Assembly: GCA_045534265.1 (NCBI GenBank)
Contig: JAZSJH010000005.1
Span: 22,234-86,233, forward strand
Direction: 5' to 3'
DNA: 64,000 nt
From: Clostridia bacterium
GTDB taxonomy: Bacteria; Bacillota; Clostridia; Christensenellales; UBA1242
In this document: in pieces, positions 1 through 61,812 of the stretch
How positions within the stretch are numbered: the stretch's first letter is position 1
How the letters are laid out: every line of letters begins with the position of its first letter
Made by a program: the position numbers and the translations under genes
The notes under the pieces: model-generated
What the model was told of the DNA's origin: nothing
Database searches by the model: none
The model's input: only the letters and a program-made list of their open reading frames with translations

Positions 1-111
1 CAAAATATAAATTATGAAATTTCTGGCGATGGCGGACTTGTTGTGTCGCAGTTTCCCATATCGGGGACAAAGGTAGCCAAAGGCGGATATATAGTTATAA
101 ATACAAATTAA
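1..111 (+). CDS. 3' end of the upstream gene, probably a class B penicillin-binding protein (SpoVD/FtsI type); C-terminal PASTA-like segment, partial
   Basis: Frame 1 is open from base 1 to TAA 109-111 (QNINYEISGDGGLVVSQFPISGTKVAKGGYIVINTN*). The G..V..Q.P..G..V..G pattern resembles a PASTA repeat. It lies directly upstream of murE, as in Firmicutes dcw clusters. Confidence 0.4.
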   Translation, partial: QNINYEISGDGGLVVSQFPISGTKVAKGGYIVINTN

Positions 112-210
112 AAAAAATAAGGCAATAAATATTATTTATTGTCTTTTTTTGCTTTTGACATATATTGCAAAAATTATTTTATACAATATATAAAAAAAGG
201 AGAATATTGT

Positions 211-1656
211 ATGGATATAAATACGCTTTTTTGTGGTATAGAATATGAGCAACAAGGAGAGCCAAAAGAGATATTATCTTTGCAAAAAAAGTCTAGTGAT
301 GTAGTAAACTCTGGCTTATTTTTTTGCTATAAAGGGGTTAATTTTGATGGTAAAGACTGCGTTATGGACGCTATCAAAAATGGTTGTGTGGCGGTTGTTG
401 TAGATGAATTTTTGGATATAGATATATGCCAGATAAAGGTAAAAAACGTACGAAAAAATATAGCCAAAGTATGTAGCAACTTTTATAAAAATCCTGATAA
501 AAATCTAAAAATAATCGGCATATCCGGAACTAACGGCAAGACAACTACAAGTTATATAATTAAAAACATTTTGCAAACTAACGGCTCTCGTGTTGGGGTT
601 ATTGGTACTAATGCTGTGTATATTGGCAACATTTGCAAAAGGGCAACTCTTACCACACCCGATCCGCAAGAGCTTTTTGAAATCTTTGACGAAATGGTAC
701 GGGCATCTGTTGAGTATGTTGTAATGGAAGTTTCAGCTCACGCTTTGGTGCTTTATAAGCTGTGGGGTGTGAGATTTGAGGTAGGGCTTTTTACAAATTT
801 TACAAGAGACCACTTAGACTTTTTTGAGACAATGGAAAATTATAAGATGGCAAAGAAAACATTTTTCTGCAGCGATTATTGTAAAAGGTGTGTGTTTAAT
901 TTTGATGATGCTGTGGGAAGAGAATTTTATGAAAATTGCGATTGCCAAAAATACAGCTATGGCATTATAAACCCAAGCAATCTGTTTGCGATAAATATTG
1001 AAATGGATTTTGACAAAAGCAAATTTGTAGTTAACTTTGAAGACGAAATATTAAATGTCGAAGTTCCGCTTGTTGGGAAATTTAATGTATACAACACTAT
1101 GGGTGCAATTGCCGTATGCAGACTACTTAATGTCCCTTGCGATAGTATTATAGCGGGGCTTTACACAATGTCGGCAGTTGATGGTAGATTTAATCTGTAC
1201 AAGCTTGATGGTAAAAATATAGTGGTTGACTTTGCCCATACTCCAGATGGGGTAGAGAATGTTTTGCGCACAGCAAAAAGTTTGAGCCGTGGCAAAATAA
1301 CAACAGTATTTGGTTGTGGTGGAAATCGTGACAGGGGCAAAAGAGCAGAGATGGGGAAAGTTGCCCAAAAGTATAGCGACAAAGTAATACTTACTAGCGA
1401 TAACCCAAGATTTGAAAATCCATTTGCTATTATCGAAGACATAAGGTTTGGGGCAAAAACTGCCGAAGTTATAGAAAATCGAAAAGAGGCAATAATTTTT
1501 GCAATTGATAATTCATCAAAAGGCGATACTATTTTGGTCCTTGGCAAAGGGGCAGAAGATTATCAAGAGATAAAGGGTGTAAAATACCCATATAGCGACA
1601 AAAGTGTAATAGAAGATTATATAAAATTATCAAAATATAATAAAAACAAGGGGTAG
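211..1656 (+). CDS. murE: UDP-N-acetylmuramoyl-L-alanyl-D-glutamate--2,6-diaminopimelate ligase
   Basis: Mur ligase P-loop GISGTNGKTTT and a DNPR motif (LTSDNPRFENP) typical of meso-DAP-adding MurE. AGGAG RBS lies before ATG 211, so the ORF-track start at 139 is probably too early. dcw context. Confidence 0.9.
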   Translation: MDINTLFCGIEYEQQGEPKEILSLQKKSSDVVNSGLFFCYKGVNFDGKDCVMDAIKNGCVAVVVDEFLDIDICQIKVKNVRKNIAKVCSNFYKNPDKNLKIIGISGTNGKTTTSYIIKNILQTNGSRVGVIGTNAVYIGNICKRATLTTPDPQELFEIFDEMVRASVEYVVMEVSAHALVLYKLWGVRFEVGLFTNFTRDHLDFFETMENYKMAKKTFFCSDYCKRCVFNFDDAVGREFYENCDCQKYSYGIINPSNLFAINIEMDFDKSKFVVNFEDEILNVEVPLVGKFNVYNTMGAIAVCRLLNVPCDSIIAGLYTMSAVDGRFNLYKLDGKNIVVDFAHTPDGVENVLRTAKSLSRGKITTVFGCGGNRDRGKRAEMGKVAQKYSDKVILTSDNPRFENPFAIIEDIRFGAKTAEVIENRKEAIIFAIDNSSKGDTILVLGKGAEDYQEIKGVKYPYSDKSVIEDYIKLSKYNKNKG

Positions 1657-1659
1657 AAA

Positions 1660-2643
1660 GTGAAGTATTTACTAGCGGGTTTATTGTCATTTGTTTTTGC
1701 GGTGATTATTTCGCCGCTAGTAATCAAATGGACAAAAAAAGTAAAGTTTGGTCAAAATATTTTAAGCTATGTAGAGTCGCATAAACAAAAACAAGGCACT
1801 CCTACTATGGGTGGAATTATATTTATATTTTCGGCTATTGCGGCAACTTTTTGCCTTGTAGAAAAAGGCTCTTTTATGACATATGTAGCTATGTCTGTAT
1901 TTTTTGCTTTTGGGGTTTTAGGGTTTTTGGACGACTTTATAAAAATCAAGCTCAAAAGGAATCTAGGACTTAGAGCATATCAAAAGGTTATTGGACAACT
2001 TGCTATTAGCTTGATTATTGGGTTATATGTTTATTTTACGGGCTTTGTTGGAAGCAATATTAATATACCATTTTTTGATAAAACTGTTGATTTGGGTGTG
2101 TTTATTATTCCGTTTATTATTTTTGTTTTTATCGCAACAACAAATAGTGTCAACTTAACAGACGGACTTGATGGACTTGCTGGCGGAACGACCATTGCTT
2201 ATCTTGTAGGAATGGGTATTATTATAGCTCTTAATTTAGACAGCCTTGATACAATTACTGCCTTTCAACAAAACAATATGTTAATATTTGTTTTTGCTGT
2301 CGTTGGCGGGGTTTTGGGATTTTTGATTTTTAACAGCCACCCTGCAAGTATTTTTATGGGAGATACTGGCTCTCTTGCTTTAGGAAGTGTGGTTGCAACG
2401 TCAGCTTGCTTTACAGGCAACTCACTTTATATCCCGATATTAGGACTTATGTTTGTGCTGTCAACGATTTCGGTTATTATTCAGGTTTTGCATTTTAAGC
2501 GCACAAAAAAAAGAGTTTTTCTTATGGCACCCCTTCATCATCATTTTGAGAAAAAAGGTATGTATGAAACAAAAATTGTCACCATATACATTATTATAAC
2601 AGCGCTTTTGTCGATTGTTTGTATAGCGCTAAATTTAATGTAG
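1660..2643 (+). CDS. mraY: phospho-N-acetylmuramoyl-pentapeptide transferase
   Basis: Polytopic membrane protein with MraY motifs GTPTMGG, LDDFIKI, NSVNLTDGLDGLA and FMGDTGSLALG. GTG start is preceded by AAGGGG. Follows murE. Confidence 0.93.
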   Translation: MKYLLAGLLSFVFAVIISPLVIKWTKKVKFGQNILSYVESHKQKQGTPTMGGIIFIFSAIAATFCLVEKGSFMTYVAMSVFFAFGVLGFLDDFIKIKLKRNLGLRAYQKVIGQLAISLIIGLYVYFTGFVGSNINIPFFDKTVDLGVFIIPFIIFVFIATTNSVNLTDGLDGLAGGTTIAYLVGMGIIIALNLDSLDTITAFQQNNMLIFVFAVVGGVLGFLIFNSHPASIFMGDTGSLALGSVVATSACFTGNSLYIPILGLMFVLSTISVIIQVLHFKRTKKRVFLMAPLHHHFEKKGMYETKIVTIYIIITALLSIVCIALNLM

Positions 2644-2651
2644 GTGAGTGT

Positions 2652-3941
2652 ATGAATTATCTTGTTGTGGGATACAACATCAGCGGAAAATCCGCAAGTA
2701 AACTATTAAAACAAAAAGGTCATAATGTCTTTGTTTATGATACCAATGAAAACGCAAAAAAAATAGTCAAAGGTGATGGTTTTAGATTTGTAAGCAGTAT
2801 AAACAAAGCCGTTTTGTCAACTATTGATGAATGCGTTATAAGTCCGTCTGTAAGACCGGATAGCGACCTTGTAAAAGTGTTAAAAAACGCAGGAATAAAA
2901 GTAATTGGAGAGCTAGAGCTTGGCTTTCAAAATTATAGCGGAAAAGTGTATGCAATCACCGGAACTAACGGCAAGACCACCGCTACAGCCCTTTTATCGC
3001 ACGTATTTGGCAAGAAAGTCCCTGCAGTTGGAAATATAGGTCTGCCGATAACAAGCGCTACAGCGGCTAAAAAATTAGTTTGCGAAGTAAGTAGTTTTCA
3101 ACTAACCAGCATAGAAAAGTTCCGCCCCAATATTGCTGGCATTACATATATCGGGTGTGACCATATAGATTATCACGGATCTATTGATGAGTATATAAAT
3201 GCAAAATACAATATAGCTCAAAATATGAAAGGAAGAGATAAACTTGTACTCAATGCAAACGACAAAGAGAGTATGAAACTGTCTCTTCTTGCAAAATGCA
3301 GAGTATGGACATTTTCGTCCAAAGGCAAATGCCGTGGAGCATATGTAGAAAATGGAAAAATATATTTTATAAAAAACAAAAAACCACAATACATAATGGA
3401 AACAAAAGATATAAAACTTATCGGCAAGCACAATCTTGAAAATGTTCTTATGGTTGTCGCTATGGCACGCCTTGCGGGAGTAACTGCAAAAAATATTAGA
3501 AATAGAGTTTCTACTTTTTATGGATTAAATCACAGACTAAAAAAAGTTGCCTGCATAGATGGTGTAACATACATTAACGATAGCAAAGCCACAAACATCT
3601 CTGCTACAAAAGTTGCTGTAGAGAGCGTAGGCGAAAATATAATCTTGCTTGTTGGTGGCAGTGACAAAGGCTATGAGTATGATAAGCTTTTGCATAACTT
3701 GAAAGTAAAGAAAATAATTGCCTTTGGTGGGGTGAAAGAAAAACTTGTAGAAGCTTTTGCAAGATGTAATTTTACTAATTACTTGGTTGCAGACACCCTA
3801 AAAGCCGCCGTAACTCTTGCCAAAACCATAGCCAAAGATGGTGATAATGTTTTGCTCTCACCAGCAAGCGCAAGTCATGATGAGTTTGAAAACTATGAGC
3901 AAAGGGGAGAAGTATTTGAAAAATGCGTTTTTGATAAATAA
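2652..3941 (+). CDS. murD: UDP-N-acetylmuramoylalanine--D-glutamate ligase
   Basis: N-terminal Rossmann segment VVGYNISGKSASKLL and Mur ligase P-loop ITGTNGKTT. Order is mraY-murD. The ATG at 2652 is the likely start. Confidence 0.9.
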   Translation: MNYLVVGYNISGKSASKLLKQKGHNVFVYDTNENAKKIVKGDGFRFVSSINKAVLSTIDECVISPSVRPDSDLVKVLKNAGIKVIGELELGFQNYSGKVYAITGTNGKTTATALLSHVFGKKVPAVGNIGLPITSATAAKKLVCEVSSFQLTSIEKFRPNIAGITYIGCDHIDYHGSIDEYINAKYNIAQNMKGRDKLVLNANDKESMKLSLLAKCRVWTFSSKGKCRGAYVENGKIYFIKNKKPQYIMETKDIKLIGKHNLENVLMVVAMARLAGVTAKNIRNRVSTFYGLNHRLKKVACIDGVTYINDSKATNISATKVAVESVGENIILLVGGSDKGYEYDKLLHNLKVKKIIAFGGVKEKLVEAFARCNFTNYLVADTLKAAVTLAKTIAKDGDNVLLSPASASHDEFENYEQRGEVFEKCVFDK

Positions 3942-5043
3942 AACAAAGCGCAGTAAAACAACTTATCTTTTGCTAGGCGCGGTTTTACTATTGGTTGTTT
4001 TGGGGTGCATTTTTGTATATTCGGCAAGCTATTATTCGGCGCAGATATCACATAACAACAAATATCATTTTTTGACAAAACAGATAATTGGTGTTTGTAT
4101 CGGTGTTGTAGCACTATTTTTTATGTGGAATTTTGATTATCGAAAACTTCAAAAGTTTTCTTACATAATTTTGGCTGTTGGATTTTTGTTTTTGATTCTG
4201 GTTTTGATACCCGGAATTGGCGTTGAAAATTATGGTGCAAGGCGTTGGATATCTTTGCCAGGATTTACTATACAAGCAAGCGAAATTTCAAAATTTTGTT
4301 ACATAATATTTGCCGCAAGCTATCTTGCAAAAAACAGAGACAAAATAAAAACATTTAAGGGGATACTTCCTGTTCTTTTGTCGGGCGGGGGTATGTGTCT
4401 TCTTATACTTTTAGAGCCTAATATGTCAATAACAATTTGTACGGGGCTTGTGATGATCACTATGCTGTTTGTCGGCGGTATATCATGGAAACATTTTTTG
4501 ATGTTGTGTATACCGGCTATTTTACTTGTTCCTATACTTATTATTATAGAGCCATATAGACTAAAAAGACTTCTTGCATTTATTGACCCGTGGGCAAACC
4601 CAAAGGGCGAAGGCTATCAACTTGTTCAGTCTCTTTATAGTTTGGGGGCAGGTGGACTCTTTGGGGTAGGGCTTTTTAATTCTAGACAAAAATACCGCTT
4701 TTTGCCTTTTGCCGAAAGTGACTTTATATTTGCAATCATAGCCGAAGAAATTGGTTTTGTCGGGGTTGTTTGCGTTGTATTATTGTTTGGTGTTATTTTG
4801 TTTTGTGGCATAAAAATTGCCAAAAATGCCACTGATTTGTTTGGTTGTTTTTTGGCTGTTGGTATAACAGCACTTATATCAATCCAAACACTTGTTAACA
4901 TTGCAGTAGTTACGGGTTCAATCCCACCAACAGGACTTCCGCTTCCGTTTATAAGTGCGGGCAGCAGCTCAATAATTGTTCTTATGGCAGGGGTGGGGTT
5001 ACTTCTTAGCGTAAATAAAATATCTAAAAAAACTAATCAATAA
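3895..5043 (+). CDS. ftsW: SEDS-family peptidoglycan polymerase FtsW/SpoVE
   Basis: About 10 hydrophobic helices. SEDS motifs RWISLPGFTIQASEISKF and GLPLPFISAGSSS. Follows murD as spoVE/ftsW does in Firmicutes. Start is uncertain (ATG 3895, or TTG 3916 after AAAGGGGAGA). Confidence 0.85.
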   Translation: MSKGEKYLKNAFLINKTKRSKTTYLLLGAVLLLVVLGCIFVYSASYYSAQISHNNKYHFLTKQIIGVCIGVVALFFMWNFDYRKLQKFSYIILAVGFLFLILVLIPGIGVENYGARRWISLPGFTIQASEISKFCYIIFAASYLAKNRDKIKTFKGILPVLLSGGGMCLLILLEPNMSITICTGLVMITMLFVGGISWKHFLMLCIPAILLVPILIIIEPYRLKRLLAFIDPWANPKGEGYQLVQSLYSLGAGGLFGVGLFNSRQKYRFLPFAESDFIFAIIAEEIGFVGVVCVVLLFGVILFCGIKIAKNATDLFGCFLAVGITALISIQTLVNIAVVTGSIPPTGLPLPFISAGSSSIIVLMAGVGLLLSVNKISKKTNQ

Positions 5044-5090
5044 TGTTGGTTAGTTTTTTTTTGTAATAATAATTTTTTATGTCAATTCAT

Positions 5091-5147: not shown

Positions 5148-6941
5148 ATGAAAAAAGATAAACAAAAGAAAATACCATTTGCAACGCTTCGCAAAGGTAT
5201 TATTAGTGGCTTGCTTGGTATAACTATGCTTACAGGAGCAGGTGTGCTAACTGGTTGTGGCAAAGACGGTGCTCCTGGTGCTACAGGACCACAAGGTCCC
5301 GCGGGAGTAGACGGTCCAGCATGGCATTACGGAGTAGATTATTCTACCTACAATGGTACAATAAATACTGGGGACTTCTTTATTGATACAAATGATTATA
5401 TCTTATACCAAAAAACAAGTTCTGGTTGGGCGACTGTAATGGAAAATTATGGTAGACCTGGAGACCCAGGACGACCAGGTGATCCAGGAGAAGACGGAGC
5501 TGATGGAGAAGATGGAGCCGATGGAGAAGATGGAGCTTATATTACAGACCATATGAGTGCTTGGGCTGGGAAAACAGCTGTTTTTGTTGGTGATAGTATC
5601 ACTTATGGCTCAAAATGTGACGGAGACAAGTATTGGGAAGTTCTAGAAGATAAGCTAAATCTTAAAAAAGTAACAGGGATGGGTGTTGGTAAATCTTGTG
5701 TAAGTGCAACAAGCACAAATGGTACAAGTTATGAACCACTAATTTCTAGATATCAAGATATTCCTGAAGCTGATTTGATTCAAATATTTATGGGAACAAA
5801 CGACTATGGATTTAATACGCCACTTGGAACAATTGAAGATACTACAGATATTTCTTTCTATGGTGCATTAAATGTAATAATTCCTGCACTACAAGCGAAA
5901 TATCCATCTTCAAGACTTGTATTCGTTACACCATTGCATCGTTACGGACAACATGGCTTGGAATATGACAATGATGAAAATGAGCAAGGCAATACATTGA
6001 GTGATTATGTTAAAGCAATTAGAGAAGTTTGTGAATTTTATTCAGTTCCTGTAATAGATTTATTTAAGGTAAGTGGTTTGAATCCTTCAATAGAAGCTGT
6101 TAGAAATCTATACATACCAGATGGATTACACCCAAATACTGAAGGTCACGAATATATTGCAAATATTATGGCTAACTATTTAGAGCTATATGCCACAACC
6201 GATCTTAATTATGCAGATGCTAATGAAGTGAAATCTCTAGAAGAAATTTCAGTAGAAAGAACTTCTCCATATTATCCTTCAACAACTCCAAATTGCAGAT
6301 TGTCTTCAACCTATAATGTTTATCTAGAAGAAGGCCAAACATTATCTCTAAAAGATGGAACAAATTACAAATATTTCTTATATGTACAGACTGGAGCAAC
6401 ACCAACTCAAGTAAGTGATGAAGATAGAATGTCACTAATGAATAGCTGGGCTACAGGTGATTTTACTGCTGCTGAAACAGGTTGGTATGGAATAACTATG
6501 GCTAAAGCAGACCAAACACAAGAATTTGATGCTGATATTATTGCAACACAAACTTTAGCTGATTATTTTACTATAAAAGCAACTGGAGTTAAAGCATTGA
6601 ATGAAATTTCAGTAGAAAGAACTTCTCCATATTATCCTTCAACAACTCCAAATTGCAGATTGTCTTCAACTTACAATGTTTATCTAGAAGAAGGTCAAAC
6701 ATTATCTCTAAAAGATGGAACAAATTACAAATATTTCTTATATGTACAGACTGGAGCAACACCAACTCAAGTAAGTGATGAAGATAGAATGTCACTAATG
6801 AATAGCTGGGCTACAGGTGATTTTACTGCCGCTGAAACAGGTTGGTATGGAATAACTATGGCTAAAGCAGACCAAACACAAGAATTTGATGCTGATATTA
6901 TTGCAACACAAACTTTAGCTGATTATTTCATCATAGAATAA
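5148..6941 (+). CDS. surface lipoprotein: collagen-like G-X-Y tracts + SGNH/GDSL hydrolase domain + two tandem 120-aa C-terminal repeats
   Basis: Signal peptide with lipobox (LTMLTGAGVLTGC). G-X-Y runs GAPGATGPQGPAGVDGP and GRPGDPGRPGDPGEDGADGEDGADGEDGA. SGNH block I VFVGDSITYG and block V DGLHPN. C-terminal duplicated module. Confidence 0.75.
   Translation: MKKDKQKKIPFATLRKGIISGLLGITMLTGAGVLTGCGKDGAPGATGPQGPAGVDGPAWHYGVDYSTYNGTINTGDFFIDTNDYILYQKTSSGWATVMENYGRPGDPGRPGDPGEDGADGEDGADGEDGAYITDHMSAWAGKTAVFVGDSITYGSKCDGDKYWEVLEDKLNLKKVTGMGVGKSCVSATSTNGTSYEPLISRYQDIPEADLIQIFMGTNDYGFNTPLGTIEDTTDISFYGALNVIIPALQAKYPSSRLVFVTPLHRYGQHGLEYDNDENEQGNTLSDYVKAIREVCEFYSVPVIDLFKVSGLNPSIEAVRNLYIPDGLHPNTEGHEYIANIMANYLELYATTDLNYADANEVKSLEEISVERTSPYYPSTTPNCRLSSTYNVYLEEGQTLSLKDGTNYKYFLYVQTGATPTQVSDEDRMSLMNSWATGDFTAAETGWYGITMAKADQTQEFDADIIATQTLADYFTIKATGVKALNEISVERTSPYYPSTTPNCRLSSTYNVYLEEGQTLSLKDGTNYKYFLYVQTGATPTQVSDEDRMSLMNSWATGDFTAAETGWYGITMAKADQTQEFDADIIATQTLADYFIIE
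6228..6938 (+). repeat. 360-bp tandem duplication (2 copies) inside the lipoprotein gene
   Basis: 6243-6568 aligns with 6603-6928 at a period of 360 bp with only 4 mismatches (6311, 6314, 6335, 6470). All 4 are at third codon positions. The encoded 109 aa are identical. Confidence 0.95.
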
Positions 6942-44124: not shown

Positions 44125-44262
44125 TAACCTATAAAGAGTGTGCGAGGGACAAGCCTTACGACCACACAGCAACCTACCTGCAAAGGCAAGGTGCTAATGC
44201 TTGTATGATGGGAAAAACAAAAGATAAAAAAGGTCCTATCATAAGATAGGGCCTTTTTATTT
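44125..44262 (+). promoter_or_regulatory. SAM-I (S-box) riboswitch with terminator, upstream of metK
   Basis: Conserved blocks AAGAG..GCGAGGGAC.AGCC...GCAACC......GGTGCTAA. Then the terminator AGGTCCTATC-ataa-GATAGGGCCT followed by a T-run. Confidence 0.8.
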
Positions 44263-44305: not shown

Positions 44306-45397
44306 ATGGAAGAAATAATAACAAGTGAAAGTGTTGGCAGGGGACACCCAGACAAAACCTGCGATATTATTGCGGATAGTTTTTTGGACGAAGCAATAAG
44401 ACAAGATAAAGACAGCCAAATGGCAGTAGAATGTGCTATAAAAGATGACCTTTTGATGATTTATGGTGAGCAAACCACAAAAGCAGTGATTGATTACGAA
44501 ACTATTGCAAGGAATATTCTCAAAGATATTGGCTACAAAAATGATTTTAGAATAATAAAGCAAATATCTATCCAATCTCCAGAAATAAACAACGCAGTAA
44601 CAAAATCTAAACTTTGCGCCAATGACCAAGGCATTGTTTTTGGGTATGCTACAAATGAAAGCAGTGATTATATGCCACTTCCTATCAGTATCGCTCATAG
44701 CCTTATGAAAGAGTACGAAAACTACCGCAAAACAAACCCACTATTTTTTGCCGATAGCAAAAGCCAAGTTTCTATAAAATATGTGGACGGAAAACCAATG
44801 TCTGTTGATACAATACTTCTTTCTGTATCACATAGCGAAGTTTTGAGTTGGGGAGAAATAAAAGCCCTTATAAAAACAAATGTTGTGGATAAAGTACTTA
44901 AAAATGTGTTTATAGACAAATCAAACTATAACCTAATAATAAATCCAAGCGGTAAGTTTACTATTTGGGGTAGTTTTGGTGATAGCGGTTGCGTGGGAAG
45001 AAAAATTGTTGTTGATACTTATGGTGGTGTTGGCAAAGTAGGTGGCGGTTGTTTTAGCTCCAAAAACGCAACCAAGGTGGATAGGTCAGGGGCATATTTT
45101 GCAAGATTTATTGCAAAAAATATAGTTGCTCACAACCTAGCTGACAAATGCGAAATCGGTCTGAGTTACGGCATTGGTCTTGAATATCCTATCAGTATAT
45201 CTGTCGAAACATTTGGTACAGAAAAGGTGGCAAAAGACAAGATTTATAAGTTCATAACAGATAACTTTGATTTGTCAGTGGATAGTATGATAAAAGAACT
45301 TGACCTTCAAAAGCCTATCTTTGCAAAAACTGCTTGTTATGGGCATTTTGGGAATCCAGACTTTAGTTGGGAAAAAATCAAGAAATGCAAAATATAA
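44306..45397 (+). CDS. metK: S-adenosylmethionine synthetase
   Basis: TSESVGRGHPDKTCD, GDQGIVFGYA-like NDQGIVFGYA, and GGGCFSSKNATKVDRSGAY. Confidence 0.93.
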   Translation: MEEIITSESVGRGHPDKTCDIIADSFLDEAIRQDKDSQMAVECAIKDDLLMIYGEQTTKAVIDYETIARNILKDIGYKNDFRIIKQISIQSPEINNAVTKSKLCANDQGIVFGYATNESSDYMPLPISIAHSLMKEYENYRKTNPLFFADSKSQVSIKYVDGKPMSVDTILLSVSHSEVLSWGEIKALIKTNVVDKVLKNVFIDKSNYNLIINPSGKFTIWGSFGDSGCVGRKIVVDTYGGVGKVGGGCFSSKNATKVDRSGAYFARFIAKNIVAHNLADKCEIGLSYGIGLEYPISISVETFGTEKVAKDKIYKFITDNFDLSVDSMIKELDLQKPIFAKTACYGHFGNPDFSWEKIKKCKI

Positions 45398-45515
45398 CAA
45401 AAAATAAATGCTAATAAAAAAAGTTGTTTTACTGTATAAAGAACAAACCATATAAAAAGTAACATTGGCACTTTCAAAAAATGTTAGAAAATCACACAAA
45501 AAATAACAAAAAACA

Positions 45516-45544
45516 TTGACTTTTGTTTTTATAAGTTATATAAT
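45516..45544 (+). promoter_or_regulatory. promoter of tRNA-Lys(CTT) (TTGACT-17-TATAAT)
   Basis: TTGACT at 45516-45521 and TATAAT at 45539-45544. It is embedded in an 11-bp perfect inverted repeat (45516-45526 / 45545-45555). Confidence 0.55.
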
Positions 45545-45562
45545 ACAAAAGTCAATCGATAT

Positions 45563-45638
45563 GGACGACTAGCTCAGTTGGTAGAGCAACTGACTCTTAA
45601 TCAGTGGGTCCAGGGTTCGAGTCCCTGGTCGTCCACCA
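45563..45638 (+). tRNA. tRNA-Lys (anticodon CTT)
   Basis: GGACGAC TAGCTCAGTTGGTAGAGC..ACTGA-CTCTTAA-TCAGT..CAGGGTTCGAGTCCCTG-GTCGTCC-A-CCA. Confidence 0.93.
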
Positions 45639-45672
45639 ACTAAATGCCGAGTTTATCGGCATTTTTTTATTA
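45632..45672 (+). repeat. 41-bp direct repeat, left copy (tRNA-Lys 3' end + terminator hairpin)
   Basis: TCCACCAACTAAATGCCGAGTTTATCGGCATTTTTTTATTA, identical to 47525-47565. It contains the terminator ATGCCGA-gttta-TCGGCAT-T7. Confidence 0.95.
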
Positions 45673-45729
45673 AATGATTTTTTATATTTAAAGGTTATAT
45701 GAAAAAATACGCGATATAATTTTGTAATC

Positions 45730-45758
45730 TTTACAATTTATTGCGAAGGTGGTACAAT
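45730..45758 (+). promoter_or_regulatory. islet-internal promoter (TTTACA-17-TACAAT, TG-extended)
   Basis: TTTACA at 45730-45735, spacer ending ..GGTGG, TACAAT at 45753-45758. It lies 24 nt upstream of ATG 45782. Confidence 0.5.
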
Positions 45759-45781
45759 GTATTTGTTATATAGGAGAGAAA

Positions 45782-46879
45782 ATGAACGTTTTATATTTAA
45801 TTGGTAATGGGTTTGATGTTAATGCAGGGATGAAAACTAGATATTCAGATTTTTATGATTATTACCTGAATTCTAACAATGATGAAAATCCACTGATTTC
45901 TGAAGTCAAAAAATCAATTAACCAATATTTGAATAATAAAGAATTTTCAAAAATCAATTGGTCAGATTTAGAAATTGCTTTTGGAAAATATTGTGAAAAT
46001 TTTAACTCAAAAGAGGATTTTGACACAGTCTATAAAGATTTAGTTTTAAGTTTATCGAAATATTTGCAAACTCAAGAAAAAGCATATTTAATTCCTGAAA
46101 AATGTAAAACAATATTTATAAATGATTTGTGTTCTCCTTTTAAATATATTTCTGAAGTTGATAGGGAATATTTTAATACATATCTTAATTCTTTTACCTC
46201 ATTTTTAAAGGTAAACATTATTACATATAATTATACGAATTCGATAGAGAATATTTTGCAATGGAAAGGTTCTTCTTTATATGTTGGAACTAAGCTAAAT
46301 CATGGACAAGTACAGATTGATAATATACAACACATTCATGGGTATACTAATAAAAGAATGGTCTTAGGCGTAAATGATGAAAGTCAGGTAAACAATTCAG
46401 AATTGTTGAAAAATCAATACTTCAAGAATGCAATCATTAAAAAGGATTGTAATAATGCACAAAAAACACTTCATGTTAAAATATGTAAAAATCTGATTTT
46501 GGAAGCAAATATTATTTGTATGTTTGGTTTATCTTTAGGAGAAACAGATAAAGATTGGTGGAGTTTTATTATAGAAAATATAGAAAAAAAGAATATTAAA
46601 TTGATTATTTTTGCACATTCTGAGCAAGAAGTTAATGGAATATTTAGTTATGAACAAGCAGAAATTTCAGACAAGATTATATATAGATTTTTATCAATGT
46701 CAAATTTGAATAATGATGCTAAAGAAAGGGTTAGAAAAAACATATATGTAGCTATAAATGCAAATATATTTAATTTTAAATTTGATAAAATTAGAAAACT
46801 TGATAATTTAAAAAATGAATTTCGCAAATTAGCAAAAGATCAAACAATAACAAAAAATGAAGTTAAGTTTGCTAGATAG
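45782..46879 (+). CDS. AbiH-like abortive-infection family protein (365 aa)
   Basis: The N-terminus MNVLYLIGNGFDVNAGMKTRYSDFYDYY matches the IGNGFD..G..T.Y.DF hallmark I associate with Pfam AbiH. Later blocks are HIHGYTNKRMVLGVND and ICMFGLSLGETDKDWW. AGGAG RBS. Confidence 0.6.
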   Translation: MNVLYLIGNGFDVNAGMKTRYSDFYDYYLNSNNDENPLISEVKKSINQYLNNKEFSKINWSDLEIAFGKYCENFNSKEDFDTVYKDLVLSLSKYLQTQEKAYLIPEKCKTIFINDLCSPFKYISEVDREYFNTYLNSFTSFLKVNIITYNYTNSIENILQWKGSSLYVGTKLNHGQVQIDNIQHIHGYTNKRMVLGVNDESQVNNSELLKNQYFKNAIIKKDCNNAQKTLHVKICKNLILEANIICMFGLSLGETDKDWWSFIIENIEKKNIKLIIFAHSEQEVNGIFSYEQAEISDKIIYRFLSMSNLNNDAKERVRKNIYVAINANIFNFKFDKIRKLDNLKNEFRKLAKDQTITKNEVKFAR

Positions 46880-46897
46880 TGAAATATTAGAGGTTTT

Positions 46898-47500
46898 ATG
46901 AATTTAGAAGAATATAATAAAGTTAAAAATTTTACATACCTTGAATATTGTGATTATTTGCAACAAAAATATGGTATAGGCGTTTGTGATTATATGACAA
47001 AAGCATATAATAAAAGGCCAAAGATTTCTAGAAGTAAAGAAGGTTTATTTGTTCACCACAAATTTGAAGACCATGCAATATTACTTTCAAATAAAAAATT
47101 TGCAATGGTAAACCCTTTTGAATGGCAATTTGCTGAAAATATGGTTTATTGTGATTATTTAGAACATTTATTATTACATGTTTTAATTTGTGAAAAACCA
47201 GCAAAAGATAAAAATAAATTTGAAGCTGTTGGAATAGGTGGCTTTTTTATAATTATTTCAACTCTAAATGATTTTTATAGTGGTTGGAATACGGAAAAAT
47301 TAACTTGGCTACAAACTTGTTTAGAAAAAGTATCAAAAGATAAAAATGTTTACCTTGAAATTATTAAACGATTTAAACATAATTGCAACAAACATCCTCA
47401 TTACACAGAAGACTGTCTTTATAGGAGTTATAATTCTCAATTAGGAAATTGGTCTATTGAAAATAATAAACAACTTTTTAAGGAAATAAAACAGCTTTAA
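46898..47500 (+). CDS. uncharacterised 200-aa protein with HNH/His-Me-finger-like motif, co-operonic with the AbiH-like gene
   Basis: AGAGG RBS, 18 nt after the upstream stop. EGLFVHHKFEDH...ENMVYCDYLEHLLLH resembles the HH..N..H...H spacing of HNH nucleases, but lacks the zinc Cys pairs. Otherwise unrecognised. Confidence 0.55.
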   Translation: MNLEEYNKVKNFTYLEYCDYLQQKYGIGVCDYMTKAYNKRPKISRSKEGLFVHHKFEDHAILLSNKKFAMVNPFEWQFAENMVYCDYLEHLLLHVLICEKPAKDKNKFEAVGIGGFFIIISTLNDFYSGWNTEKLTWLQTCLEKVSKDKNVYLEIIKRFKHNCNKHPHYTEDCLYRSYNSQLGNWSIENNKQLFKEIKQL

Positions 47501-47524
47501 AAATTAGAGTTAAGTTTCTTATGC

Positions 47525-47565
47525 TCCACCAACTAAATGCCGAGTTTATCGGCATTTTTTTATTA
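47525..47565 (+). repeat. 41-bp direct repeat, right copy
   Basis: Identical to 45632-45672. It provides the terminator for the islet operon. Confidence 0.95.
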
Positions 47566-47884
47566 TAAAAAATAAAAATGGAGTTTCGAAATTAAGTTTT
47601 ACCCTTAATTTTACCCTTAAAATATATAACGAAAAATACAAGTGTTCGCTTGTATTTTTTTGCATATCCTATTTGAATAATTAGCAAACGTGCTGATACT
47701 GGTCTTGTGCAACCTGTAAGTGGTGTTATAGTAAGGGCAGTGGCATTGCCTGCTGTAAAAAAATGTCAATTGTTGGGCAAGTTGAATTTATACAAAAAAT
47801 ATTTTGATATATAAGGTACTTTTTCAAAATATTAGTTGTAAAAAGTGGGTTTTAATTGTACAATATTTTTGGAGGGCGAAAGTT

Positions 47885-49252
47885 ATGAATTATGATGTAA
47901 TTATAATCGGGGCAGGTCCGGGGGGCATTTTTTCAGCCTACGAACTTGCAAAAAATAACAAAGACATAAAAATTGCTGTTTTTGAGGCAGGTAGCGCCCT
48001 AAAAGATAGAAAATGTCCTATAGATGGCAAAAAAATTACTTCTTGTATTGGCTGTAAAAGTTGCAGTATTATGAGTGGTTTTGGCGGAGCGGGAGCCTTT
48101 TCGGATGGAAAGTATAATATAACTAATGACTTTGGTGGTACGCTTTACGAATATGTTGGCAAAGAAAATGCCATAAGCCTTATGGAATATGTTGACAAAA
48201 TCAATGTAGAAAATGGTGGAGAGTGTACAAAACTATACTCAACAGGTGGTAGCGGGCTAAAAAGAGAATGTATCAAACACGACTTGCATTTGTTAGATGC
48301 AAAAGTTAGACATTTGGGTACAGATATTAACTATGTTGTATTAGAAAATATTTATAATAAATTAAAAGACGTTGTTGATTTTTATTTCAACACAACAGTA
48401 GATAGTGTAAGCAAAATACAAGACGGCTACGAAGTAAAATGCAAAGACAAGACATATTCTTGTTCAAATTGTATTGTGTCAGTTGGTCGCAGCGGTAGCA
48501 AATGGATGGAAAAAGTTTGCAGCGACCTAAACATTAAGACTAAGTCAAATAGAGTAGATATTGGCGTTAGAGTTGAACTTCCGGCTAATGTTTTTGCTCA
48601 TATAACAGATGAACTATATGAAAGCAAGATTGTTTATTGTACCGAAAAGTATGGTGATAAGGTAAGAACTTTTTGTATGAACCCAAGAGGCGTGGTTGTT
48701 AACGAAAACACAAATGGCATAATTACTGTTAATGGTCATAGCTATCACGGAGAAGAGTCAAAAACAGATAATACTAACTTTGCACTACTTGTATCAAAAC
48801 AATTTTCAGAGCCTTTCAAAGACTCTAATGGTTATGGTGAGTCAATAGCAAGACTTAGCAATATGTTAGGTGGCGGGGTTTTGGTTCAAAGATTTGGCGA
48901 CCTTATTCGTGGCAGAAGATCTACTGTTTCGCGTATGAGAGATGCGTTTATCACACCAACTCTAAAGGCAACTCCGGGTGACCTTAGTTTGGTTCTTCCA
49001 AAAAGAATACTAGACGGTATTATTGAGATGATATATGCTTTGGACAAAATAGCTCCGGGAACTGCAAATGATGATACATTGCTATATGGGGTAGAAGTTA
49101 AGTTTTATAATATGGAAGTTGAGGTAAACGAAAGCTTAGAAACTTGCCACAAAGGTTTGTATATCATAGGTGATGGTAGCGGTATAACTCACTCACTATC
49201 TCATGCATCAGCTAGCGGCGTACATGTTGCAAGAGCAATTCTTAATAAATAA
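47885..49252 (+). CDS. FAD-dependent oxidoreductase (COG2509-like uncharacterised dehydrogenase)
   Basis: YDVIIIGAGPGGIFSAYELA dinucleotide-binding motif, C-terminal GLYIIGDGSG, and a central Cys cluster CPIDGKKITSCIGCKSC. GGAGGG RBS before ATG 47885. Confidence 0.72.
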   Translation: MNYDVIIIGAGPGGIFSAYELAKNNKDIKIAVFEAGSALKDRKCPIDGKKITSCIGCKSCSIMSGFGGAGAFSDGKYNITNDFGGTLYEYVGKENAISLMEYVDKINVENGGECTKLYSTGGSGLKRECIKHDLHLLDAKVRHLGTDINYVVLENIYNKLKDVVDFYFNTTVDSVSKIQDGYEVKCKDKTYSCSNCIVSVGRSGSKWMEKVCSDLNIKTKSNRVDIGVRVELPANVFAHITDELYESKIVYCTEKYGDKVRTFCMNPRGVVVNENTNGIITVNGHSYHGEESKTDNTNFALLVSKQFSEPFKDSNGYGESIARLSNMLGGGVLVQRFGDLIRGRRSTVSRMRDAFITPTLKATPGDLSLVLPKRILDGIIEMIYALDKIAPGTANDDTLLYGVEVKFYNMEVEVNESLETCHKGLYIIGDGSGITHSLSHASASGVHVARAILNK

Positions 49253-60862: not shown

Positions 60863-61612
60863 ATGATGGAATTTGATATCGAAAAAATTCTAAAGGAACT
60901 TGCAAAGGAGCGTCCAGTTTTTCATAACGAAAGTGACTTTCAATTTTGTTTGGCTCTAAAAATAAAAGAAATTTATCCAAGTTATGAAATAAGACTAGAG
61001 AAATTTTTTGGTACAGAAAGAGAAATTGTAAATGGCAGAAATCAAACTATAAGAAAATATATTGATATAATAGTTGCTGATGAACCTAGTGAAAAATACA
61101 TAGCAATTGAGCTAAAATATAAAACAAAAGGTGTTCAGTTTAACTCTTTTAGAGAAGAATATGACCTTCAAGATCATGGGGCACAAGACTATGGCAGTTA
61201 TGCAGTACTTGCTGATGTTGAAAGAATAGAAACTTTGAGACGAATTGACAAATTTTATCGTGGTTTTCACTTTGAAAAAGGTTATTCAATTATTATTTCT
61301 AATGATAGATATTATGAAAAGGATAATGAGAATAATTTGTTTTCTAGTTATTGGCTTACCGATGGAAAAATTATTAATAAAGGTAAGTTGGATTTTGTTA
61401 TACCACAAGGAAAAACTCAAAACCAAACTTGTGCAAAAGGATTCAAGTCTATTTGTTTAGAAGATGATTATAAAATAGAGTGGAAACAATACTCTAATAT
61501 TATGTATGATGAGACTGATTTGCCAACACACTCTAGCAGCCAAAAAGCATTTAAGGAACGCAGAAGCTTTAGATGTGCAATACTTACAATACAAAACAAA
61601 AAAGACCTATAA
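60863..61612 (+). CDS. hypothetical protein with PD-(D/E)xK nuclease-like motif
   Basis: ESDFQ (helix E), YIDIIVAD (D) and, 14 aa later, IAIELKYK (E-x-K). No other domain recognised. Confidence 0.45.
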   Translation: MMEFDIEKILKELAKERPVFHNESDFQFCLALKIKEIYPSYEIRLEKFFGTEREIVNGRNQTIRKYIDIIVADEPSEKYIAIELKYKTKGVQFNSFREEYDLQDHGAQDYGSYAVLADVERIETLRRIDKFYRGFHFEKGYSIIISNDRYYEKDNENNLFSSYWLTDGKIINKGKLDFVIPQGKTQNQTCAKGFKSICLEDDYKIEWKQYSNIMYDETDLPTHSSSQKAFKERRSFRCAILTIQNKKDL

Positions 61613-61736: not shown

Positions 61737-61812
61737 TGGTGACACATATGGGACTCGAACCCATGTTACCGGCGTGAGAGGCCAGCGTACTAGACCGCTA
61801 TACGAATGTGCC
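61737..61812 (-). tRNA. tRNA-Glu (anticodon CTC)
   Basis: Reverse complement is GGCACAT TCGTATAGCGGTCTAGTAC..CTGGC-CTCTCAC-GCCGG..ATGGGTTCGAGTCCCAT-ATGTGTC-A-CCA. Confidence 0.88.

Follow-up and report, generated by a model that had tools for sequence, protein, structure and literature searches.

The stretch of DNA analysed here, 64,000 nucleotides (nt) from a Clostridia bacterium (contig JAZSJH010000005.1, positions 22,234 to 86,233 of the forward strand), is referred to below as the window. It carries, after a tRNA-Lys(CTT) gene, an islet of about 1.9 kb and low GC content that contains two genes, called here gene A, a member of the AbiH family, and gene B, a member of the SAV1803 family with an HNH-like motif. 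A preliminary description, made from the letters of the sequence, had proposed that the two constitute an anti-phage module composed of a sensor and an effector. The follow-up reported here leads elsewhere, and its unexpected result is the behaviour of the gene B family rather than a pairing with AbiH.

Layout of the islet and expression signals

The features of the islet are the following.

45563-45638, + strand: tRNA-Lys(CTT), the insertion target (ARAGORN; Rfam tRNA, 72 bits), whose last 7 nt start the left direct repeat
45632-45672, + strand: left copy of the 41-nt direct repeat, made of the tRNA 3' end TCCACCA and a terminator hairpin at 45642-45664 (repeat search and terminator scan)
45730-45758, + strand: promoter-like site TTTACA-17-TACAAT with TG upstream, 23 nt before gene A (consensus scan, weak evidence)
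45782-46879, + strand: gene A, AbiH family, predicted SIR2-like fold, 365 amino acids (Pfam AbiH, AlphaFold2 model, Foldseek, invariant residues)
46880-46897, + strand: 18-nt spacer with the ribosome-binding site (RBS) AGAGG, arranged as ATTA-RBS-ATG (sequence, blastn, alignment)
46898-47500, + strand: gene B, SAV1803 family, 200 amino acids, HNH-like motif, putative nuclease (NCBIfam NF053682, invariant residues, AlphaFold2, domain fusions)
47501-47524, + strand: conserved cassette tail from the gene B stop codon to the duplicated tRNA end, consensus about TTCGAGTTAAGTTTCTTNTG (alignment with cassettes of other species)
47525-47565, + strand: right copy of the 41-nt direct repeat, which is the right islet boundary, made of the partial tRNA 3' end and a terminator hairpin at 47535-47557

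The two copies of the direct repeat are 100% identical, have a spacing of 1893 nt and bracket exactly genes A and B. The two genes had been described as the sole cargo of a tRNA-flanking islet, and this view is retained with boundaries that are sharper than those first seen. The GC content is 23-26% in the islet compared with 31-38% in its flanks. Both open reading frames (ORFs) lie where they had been placed, gene A with the motifs LYLIGNGFDVNAGMKTRYSDFYDYY, HIHGY..VLGVND and FGLSLGETDKDWW, and gene B, after the 18-nt gap with AGAGG, with FVHHKFEDH, ENMVYCDYLEHLLLH and GIGGFFIIISTL. The gene A/gene B junction is also present, with 99.7% identity, on an independent metagenome contig of 1,032 nt (L086), and is therefore not an assembly artefact.

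Both genes had been thought to share a TG-extended promoter and a terminator. A terminator-like hairpin does follow gene B, and none lies between the genes: two terminator-like hairpins were detected in 45350-47900 compared with 0.5 expected, both of them within the repeat copies, which makes the co-transcription of genes A and B plausible on sequence grounds. By contrast, the promoter-like site at 45730-45758 is weak evidence, because such sites are no commoner in this AT-rich stretch than in shuffled sequence (18 found against 19.6 expected).

The islet is bordered on the left by metK with its SAM riboswitch and on the right by a gene encoding a FAD-dependent oxidoreductase. The riboswitch, at 44126-44214 (51.6 bits, above the gathering score) upstream of metK (44306-45397), is ordinary, and an Rfam scan of the window and of the leaders between tRNA genes and gene B matched only tRNAs and this riboswitch.

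Gene A is an AbiH protein with a predicted SIR2-like fold

Gene A is a new member of a known family. It matches the Pfam family PF14253 (AbiH) with E=6e-43 and 148.2 bits, far over the cutoff of 30.9, residues 4-277 aligning with positions 1-259 of the 260-position profile, and its earlier assignment to AbiH is borne out. The PADLOC model of the lactococcal type (PDLC02345) is matched weakly (E=3.5e-5, 21.5 bits) but over its full length. Eight residues, G8, N9, G10, D12, H184, H186, G196 and N198, are invariant in 40 homologues of gene A and correspond to the N-terminal glycine-rich motif and to the central HxH and GVND blocks.

The AlphaFold2 model of the protein (pLDDT 91) was compared with the PDB using Foldseek. 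All of the top 21 matches are SIR2 proteins from defence systems, the best being SIR2-HerA/Nezha (E=5e-6), ThsA of Thoeris (1e-4) and SPARSA (2e-4), each with a probability of 1.0. It should be noted that the TM-scores of these matches are only about 0.4 and that gene A, unlike these NADases, has no HerA, SLOG or Argonaute partner. A 2026 review (PMC13064643) treats the lactococcal AbiH as a system of one gene whose mechanism is unknown and whose product is predicted to have a sirtuin fold; it is possibly NAD-depleting and often carried on integrative elements. The single-gene status agrees with that given in the preliminary description. Gene A resembles it in matching the family model over the full length, in its N-terminal GNGFD motif, in its predicted sirtuin-like fold and in lying on mobile DNA; it differs from it in the weak PADLOC match and in an identity of at most 56% to its nearest database relatives. 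By analogy with SIR2-HerA, ThsA and SPARSA, to which its modelled fold is alike, and with the AbiH literature, gene A most likely acts by NAD+ depletion.

The closest relatives of gene A are found in three different settings: solitary beside argS (56% identity), after a ResIII+Eco57I restriction gene and a 176-amino-acid ORF (48%), and 2 nt after a gene for an MmeI-type enzyme (46%). At two loci (L088, positions 1-5047, and L090, positions 1219-5044) AbiH relatives lie directly downstream of large single-chain restriction-modification genes, which suggests a recurrent linkage of AbiH with Type IIG-ISP enzymes.

Two observations concern the 3' end of gene A. The possibility that its C-terminal 27 residues are a junction artefact was considered, and the ends of the homologue alignments were too scattered to decide. 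The segment 46839-46870 resembles 47486-47517, which comprises the 3' end of gene B and the beginning of the tail (32 nt, 72% identity, AGTTAAGTTT in common); AbiH may have come in as a separate cassette with its own tail, or the likeness may be due to chance in AT-rich DNA.

Gene B belongs to a large family with a nuclease-like core

Gene B had been regarded as unplaceable in any family. It matches the NCBIfam model NF053682, 'SAV1803-related protein', with E=1e-37 and 128.7 bits (cutoff 40), residues 5-128 covering the whole of the 132-position profile (1-132). The family is large: a word-index search retrieved 699 homologues, and an exhaustive search 797 clusters at 50% identity. Residues H53, H54, N81, H90 and H94 do not vary in 35 close homologues, whose mean column identity is 71%. 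In a set of 69 diverse homologues no variation is seen at H53 and H94, and conservation reaches 90% or more at H54 and H90 but stays below 90% at N81.

These residues compose the motif HH...N-x8-H-x3-H, whose N-x8-H-x3-H spacing is that of the HNH motif of colicin E9 (sequence checked against PDB 1bxi_B). In the AlphaFold2 model (pLDDT 86, pTM 0.86) they are distributed over a strand at 51-54 (FVHH), a strand at 82-85 (MVYC) that follows N81, and a helix at 87-99 (YLEHLLLH), a predicted beta-beta-alpha core in the arrangement of His-Me fingers, with a helical insert between the strands. The gene B domain is moreover fused N-terminally to superfamily 2 helicases (ResIII/Helicase_C) with NUMOD/NUMOD1, I-HmuI-like, I-TevI-type and Myb DNA-binding modules, and it is found at the C-terminus of a 1,563-amino-acid ResIII+Eco57I-methylase protein and of an SNF2 helicase. 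Such positions are the usual places of nuclease modules.

Several searches did not confirm a relationship with HNH nucleases. Nothing was matched by gene B in Pfam, PHROGs or PADLOC, and only one of the 69 family members examined with Pfam matched AHH (E=0.0035). Sequence searches of the PDB with two profiles returned nothing meaningful, Foldseek found no PDB structure at E<0.1 and only spurious helical bundles, and hhalign comparison of the family profile with colicin E9 was not significant (probability 0.1). Gene B also differs from the HNH/His-Me nucleases, to which it shows no significant sequence or fold match, by its 26-residue helical insert between the strands and by the lack of cysteine pairs. 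The matches in the BFVD database were weak as well: HNH, homing and MobE endonucleases were among the top eight (E 0.03-0.3), and the best match was an unnamed protein (E=0.008). A small motif within a 200-residue helical protein is not easily picked up by a global search. The likeness to His-Me/HNH nucleases noted in the preliminary description is plausible in view of the conserved residues, the modelled core and the domain fusions, and does not extend to any significant family match. On this evidence it is likely that gene B, as a putative nuclease, works like a His-Me enzyme.

The hydrophobic segment GIGGFFIIISTL was considered as a membrane helix. The model places it in a helix (113-127) that is buried and contains invariant glycines, and a membrane role is unlikely. 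One 'Clostridia' metagenome-assembled genome (MAG; L021, around position 6226) has a TGA at the invariant Trp76 of gene B (FE-TGA-Q); either this copy is a pseudogene or the organism reads TGA as tryptophan.

Genes A and B are not a conserved pair

Flanking sequence of up to 6 kb to the left and right of gene B was examined in 62 species-representative genomes, together with the contigs of individual homologues. AbiH was searched for in these flanks with phmmer, using gene A as the query, and with the AbiH profile hidden Markov model at E<=10. No AbiH ORF was found in the flanks of gene B at the 62 species loci, in about 10 distinct metagenome contexts or at 7 IMG/VR loci. Likewise, gene B was absent near 38 AbiH loci (3 close ones, and 35 distant ones from IMG/VR). 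All-against-all clustering of the flanking ORFs revealed no neighbour that is conserved beside gene B; the genes nearest to it are for the most part housekeeping ones, encoding DNA polymerase I, CTP synthase, enolase and tRNA synthetases, with few defence-type matches.

The closest relative of gene B (P0002, locus L093, 92% identity) has no AbiH beside it and is separated by 57 nt from a preceding tRNA-Lys(CTT) whose sequence is that of the window's tRNA; the same order of tRNA-Lys(CTT), 57 nt and gene B is found at two further loci (L015, L083). A homologue of 79% identity lies 47 nt after a tRNA-Tyr. In blastn comparisons, the similarity of the window to stand-alone gene B loci starts at the gene B RBS (about 46893-46897), and AbiH is on this account regarded as a lineage-specific addition between the tRNA terminator and gene B.

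The sensor/effector module that had been proposed for this locus therefore finds no support, as the two genes do not co-occur from either side and the closest relative of gene B lacks AbiH. The neighbourhood comparison had been put forward in the preliminary description itself, and by that description's own reckoning the result, no enrichment of gene B homologues beside AbiH-like genes and only few adjoining defence genes, speaks against the module.

Gene B recurs at the 3' flank of tRNA genes

Gene B is met with, unaccompanied, shortly downstream of tRNA genes in numerous gut bacteria. A tRNA or tmRNA gene lies within 1 kb of gene B at 24 of 67 non-redundant loci. The density of tRNA clusters is 0.20 per kb near gene B and 0.012 per kb in the distal flanks of these loci, a 17-fold difference (Poisson P about 2e-22). 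The association is oriented: upstream tRNA genes are co-directional with gene B in 16 of 17 cases and downstream ones convergent in 8 of 8, so that, for 24 of these 25 tRNA genes, it is the 3' end that faces gene B.

As in the window, direct repeats formed from the 3' end of the tRNA, from the terminator or from both bracket gene B at other loci.

Window: 41 nt, tRNA-Lys
L046: 42 nt with 1 mismatch, tRNA-Ala
L048: about 49 nt, imperfect, tRNA-Val
L043: 25 nt, tRNA-Leu, convergent
L014: 17 nt, tRNA-Leu
L015: 13 nt, tRNA-Lys
L031: 13 nt, tRNA-Gly, convergent
L034: 13 nt, tRNA-Ser

When the search was made blind to tRNA genes, exact direct repeats of at least 12 nt were found to flank gene B at 12 of 54 loci compared with 1 of 54 in the reversed-sequence control, and duplicated terminators bracket gene B also where no tRNA is present (L044 and others). 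The repeat-bounded units measure 0.7-1.9 kb and include, apart from gene B, no more than one small ORF; the small accessory ORFs near gene B cassettes, and those near AbiH relatives, gave no Pfam match. A conserved tail of about 24-28 nt, which runs from the stop codon of gene B to the duplicated ...CTCCACCA, is common to cassettes at Lys, Ala, Val and Ser tRNAs (L015, L083, L093, L046, L048, L051, L060), and the window matches it once compared with 0.04 times expected.

Further observations point to movement of gene B between sites. One MAG has two copies of gene B, 90% identical, at a tRNA-Ala and a tRNA-Val, and an identical gene B protein was found in several different genomic contexts. 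Nonsense mutations are present in some copies (L023, L057), and relatives of about 32% identity are carried on 36 Firmicute plasmids. The tRNA-Lys site of the window was itself seen with gene B alone, with AbiH and gene B, and with an unrelated serine-recombinase element, and the flank of tRNA-Lys(CTT) is a general integration hotspot. The last of these states came from a metagenome scan for the exact 33-mer of the tRNA 3' end, which returned two matches (L096, L097 = JAEIGA010365177.1). One is a partial copy, 46 nt long, of the 3' half of the tRNA, and in the other a large-serine-recombinase element follows the same tRNA.

As regards expression, gene B of the Lys-type cassettes begins 47-57 nt after the tRNA with no evident promoter of its own. 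Eight loci (L007, L009, L018, L019, L022, L026, L027, L032) have a common conserved leader, about 90 nt upstream of gene B, that ends in a terminator-like hairpin, GCGTGTTTCTTAATGGAACACGCTTTTTT, just before the RBS. This subgroup and the Lys-type cassettes suggest that gene B is generally expressed by terminator read-through.

Other structures were noted around individual cassettes. Upstream of gene B, at a distance of about 60-200 nt, one subgroup of three loci (L046, 5780-5960; L048, 5770-5950; L060, 5800-5950) has a non-coding block that is conserved and rich in GC, with the near-identical core GCGCACTTGTTATATATCAAGCACCCGCCAnAGTGCCA. The block matches no Rfam family; it may act as a structured RNA, or the cassette may use it for regulation or recognition. 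At two loci (L046, 5650-5700; L048, 5637-5720; for example ATTGCCCACCA ... TGGTGGGCAAT) the tRNA terminator is followed by the 3' end of the tRNA in inverted copy, which allows the acceptor end to form a long extended hairpin; in L048 this hairpin is kept in both repeat copies through different stem sequences. At four loci (L007, L008, L011, L012) a gene for an IS200-type Y1 transposase follows gene B and a small membrane ORF, about 570 nt downstream; it is missing from two others (L009, L010) that carry the same identical gene B protein.

Two further places in the window are of related interest. Directly after the right repeat, at 47566-47610, AAAATGGAGTTTCGAAATTAAGTTTTACCC resembles a gene B RBS fused to a second cassette tail; the similarity is weak, and this segment may be the relic of an older, deleted cassette, which would imply repeated invasion of the site. 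At 60863-61612 (+ strand) a solitary ORF of 249 amino acids without Pfam match converges on the 3' end of tRNA-Glu(CTC) (61737-61812, - strand), in the geometry of many gene B cassettes. By eye, its product has a D...E.K pattern (IDIIVADE...IAIELKYK) reminiscent of PD-(D/E)xK nucleases, and this may be a second tRNA-flank islet in the window.

Origin of the islet

The explanation that we favour, and hold to be somewhat likely, is that the islet is an accidental operon, in which a stand-alone AbiH defence gene and a selfish or trans-mobilised nuclease cassette were acquired independently at the 3' end of tRNA-Lys(CTT). Gene A would work by itself in abortive infection, first sensing the infection and then, as the effector, depleting NAD+. 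Gene B would represent a mobile cassette of its own, of about 0.7-1.9 kb, solitary in dozens of Bacillota species and placed 3' of tRNA genes or after terminators. Its product would be a sequence- or structure-specific DNA nuclease that cuts unoccupied tRNA-3'/terminator sites, and repair templated by the repeat-flanked donor would insert a copy of the cassette, on the pattern of free-standing homing endonucleases. In this process the flanking repeats would act as short arms of homology, and any gene between them, such as AbiH, would be copied along with gene B. Since AbiH, with a putative promoter of its own, lies between the tRNA terminator and the gene B RBS, gene B would now be read from the AbiH promoter.

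Like the free-standing homing endonucleases of phages (MobE, I-HmuI), gene B is a solitary gene of patchy distribution with degenerate copies, found in multiple contexts, and its relatives are fused to NUMOD and I-HmuI-like modules. Unlike them, it is chromosomal and its insertions are flanked by target duplications.

Several points weigh against this explanation. There is no tRNA gene within 1 kb of gene B at 43 of the 67 loci, and the 33-mer scan did not recover the tRNA-Lys site of a close relative in its empty state. Relatives of gene B are nearly absent from phage genomes, the setting from which free-standing homing endonucleases are best known, with two matches in phage databases. These matches are unlikely to be phage DNA: in one of them (L098, Staphylococcus phage UPMK_1, MG543995.1, 49416-55847) the gene B match adjoins splA, splB and splC of the S. 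aureus vSa-beta island, and on that account the region looks like host chromosomal vSa-beta DNA. SAV1803 of Staphylococcus aureus, at the edge of the same island, is a fixed gene in nearly all strains examined. It has the same NF053682 domain as gene B and, like it, marks an edge of acquired DNA near tRNA genes (here the 5' border of vSa-beta), but the staphylococcal copies are about 32% identical to gene B and the tRNA cluster is at the far end of the island. The comparative data may also be compatible with a functional interaction of AbiH and gene B restricted to this lineage. Finally, classical homing makes no target duplications, and repeats that hold a tRNA 3' end are the signature of tyrosine-integrase recombination. 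Because the repeats found here include the tRNA 3' end, mobilisation by an integrase acting in trans is a serious alternative.

This alternative is part of a second explanation, which we regard as possible though unlikely, according to which the islet is a decayed integrative element (CIME) at tRNA-Lys(CTT) that has kept attL and attR and lost its integrase, with two separate defence genes as cargo. Gene B would then be a stand-alone nuclease of the restriction type, such as a modification-dependent HNH enzyme akin to Type IV, and the cassettes would be moved by tyrosine integrases in trans. The tRNA 3' end within the direct repeats is what is expected of att sites, and the conserved tail beside the right repeat could be an integrase arm site. 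The islet resembles the CIMEs found at tRNA-Lys(CTT) in Firmicutes in its repeats with the tRNA 3' end, in the lack of an integrase inside and in the hotspot tRNA; CIMEs, tandem accretion and this hotspot are all documented (PMC5704250), and the large-serine-recombinase element of L097 occupies the same tRNA-Lys. The occurrence of the gene B domain as the presumptive nuclease module of restriction-modification-like fusion proteins, and the few gene B neighbours that are defence genes (HamA, GmrSD, HerA, a Type I methyltransferase), would fit as well. Against this, CIMEs are decay products with arbitrary cargo, and random decay of larger elements does not account for one and the same gene being left alone at many different tRNAs and terminators across many species, where gene B recurs with a conserved tail in units down to 0.7 kb. 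No integrase family is among the 25 commonest Pfam families of the nearest neighbours of gene B, these neighbours are mostly housekeeping genes, and no PADLOC model matches gene B.

That AbiH and gene B form a new, lineage-restricted two-gene anti-phage system, in which a sensor/NADase would be coupled to a His-Me nuclease effector, is very improbable. A common transcript would be consistent with the 18-nt spacing, with the lack of a terminator between the genes and with the one promoter-like site upstream of them, both genes lie within one repeat-bounded islet, their junction recurs in a second assembly (L086), and SIR2 effectors, judging by the PDB matches, have partner proteins in other systems. 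The two genes do not co-occur, however, either around gene B homologues (62 species, about 10 metagenome contexts, 7 IMG/VR loci) or at the 38 AbiH loci; their closest relatives are solitary or have other neighbours (an MmeI-type enzyme, ResIII+Eco57I or argS for AbiH, tRNA genes for gene B), and the AbiH of the literature is a single-gene system. A conserved cellular role of gene B, tRNA-related or otherwise housekeeping, with placement near tRNA genes for co-expression, would agree with its strong purifying conservation (mean column identity 71%), with its position 47-57 nt after the tRNA without evident promoter in the Lys-type loci and with the conservation of the homologue in nearly all S. 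aureus strains examined, but is hardly credible given the lack of synteny between species, the duplicated target sequences that bracket the gene, its patchy distribution and plasmid copies, its pseudogenised copies, the second copy at another tRNA in one genome and its atypically low GC content.

Significance

The comparative data give no support to a two-gene defence system at this locus, which spares cloning effort aimed at such a partnership. They also provide a context for a large protein family without Pfam model (about 800 clusters at 50% identity), in the form of a candidate active site, of domain fusions and of an oriented association with tRNA 3' ends; no description of the behaviour of this family was found in literature searches. 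From the accidental-operon explanation follows a testable hypothesis, namely that a tiny nuclease-only cassette colonises tRNA flanks and terminators and may at times pick up defence genes. We put forward, tentatively and as a doubtful proposition, that the gene B family represents an undescribed class of minimal mobile elements of 0.7-1.9 kb, in which a divergent His-Me nuclease would be the sole constant gene and which would insert at tRNA 3' ends and terminators, duplicate their target, lack a recombinase of their own and carry passengers (AbiH here, small unknown ORFs elsewhere), so that a selfish nuclease would spread defence genes between genomes. If true, this would amount to a new kind of minimal mobile element and to a new route by which defence genes travel.

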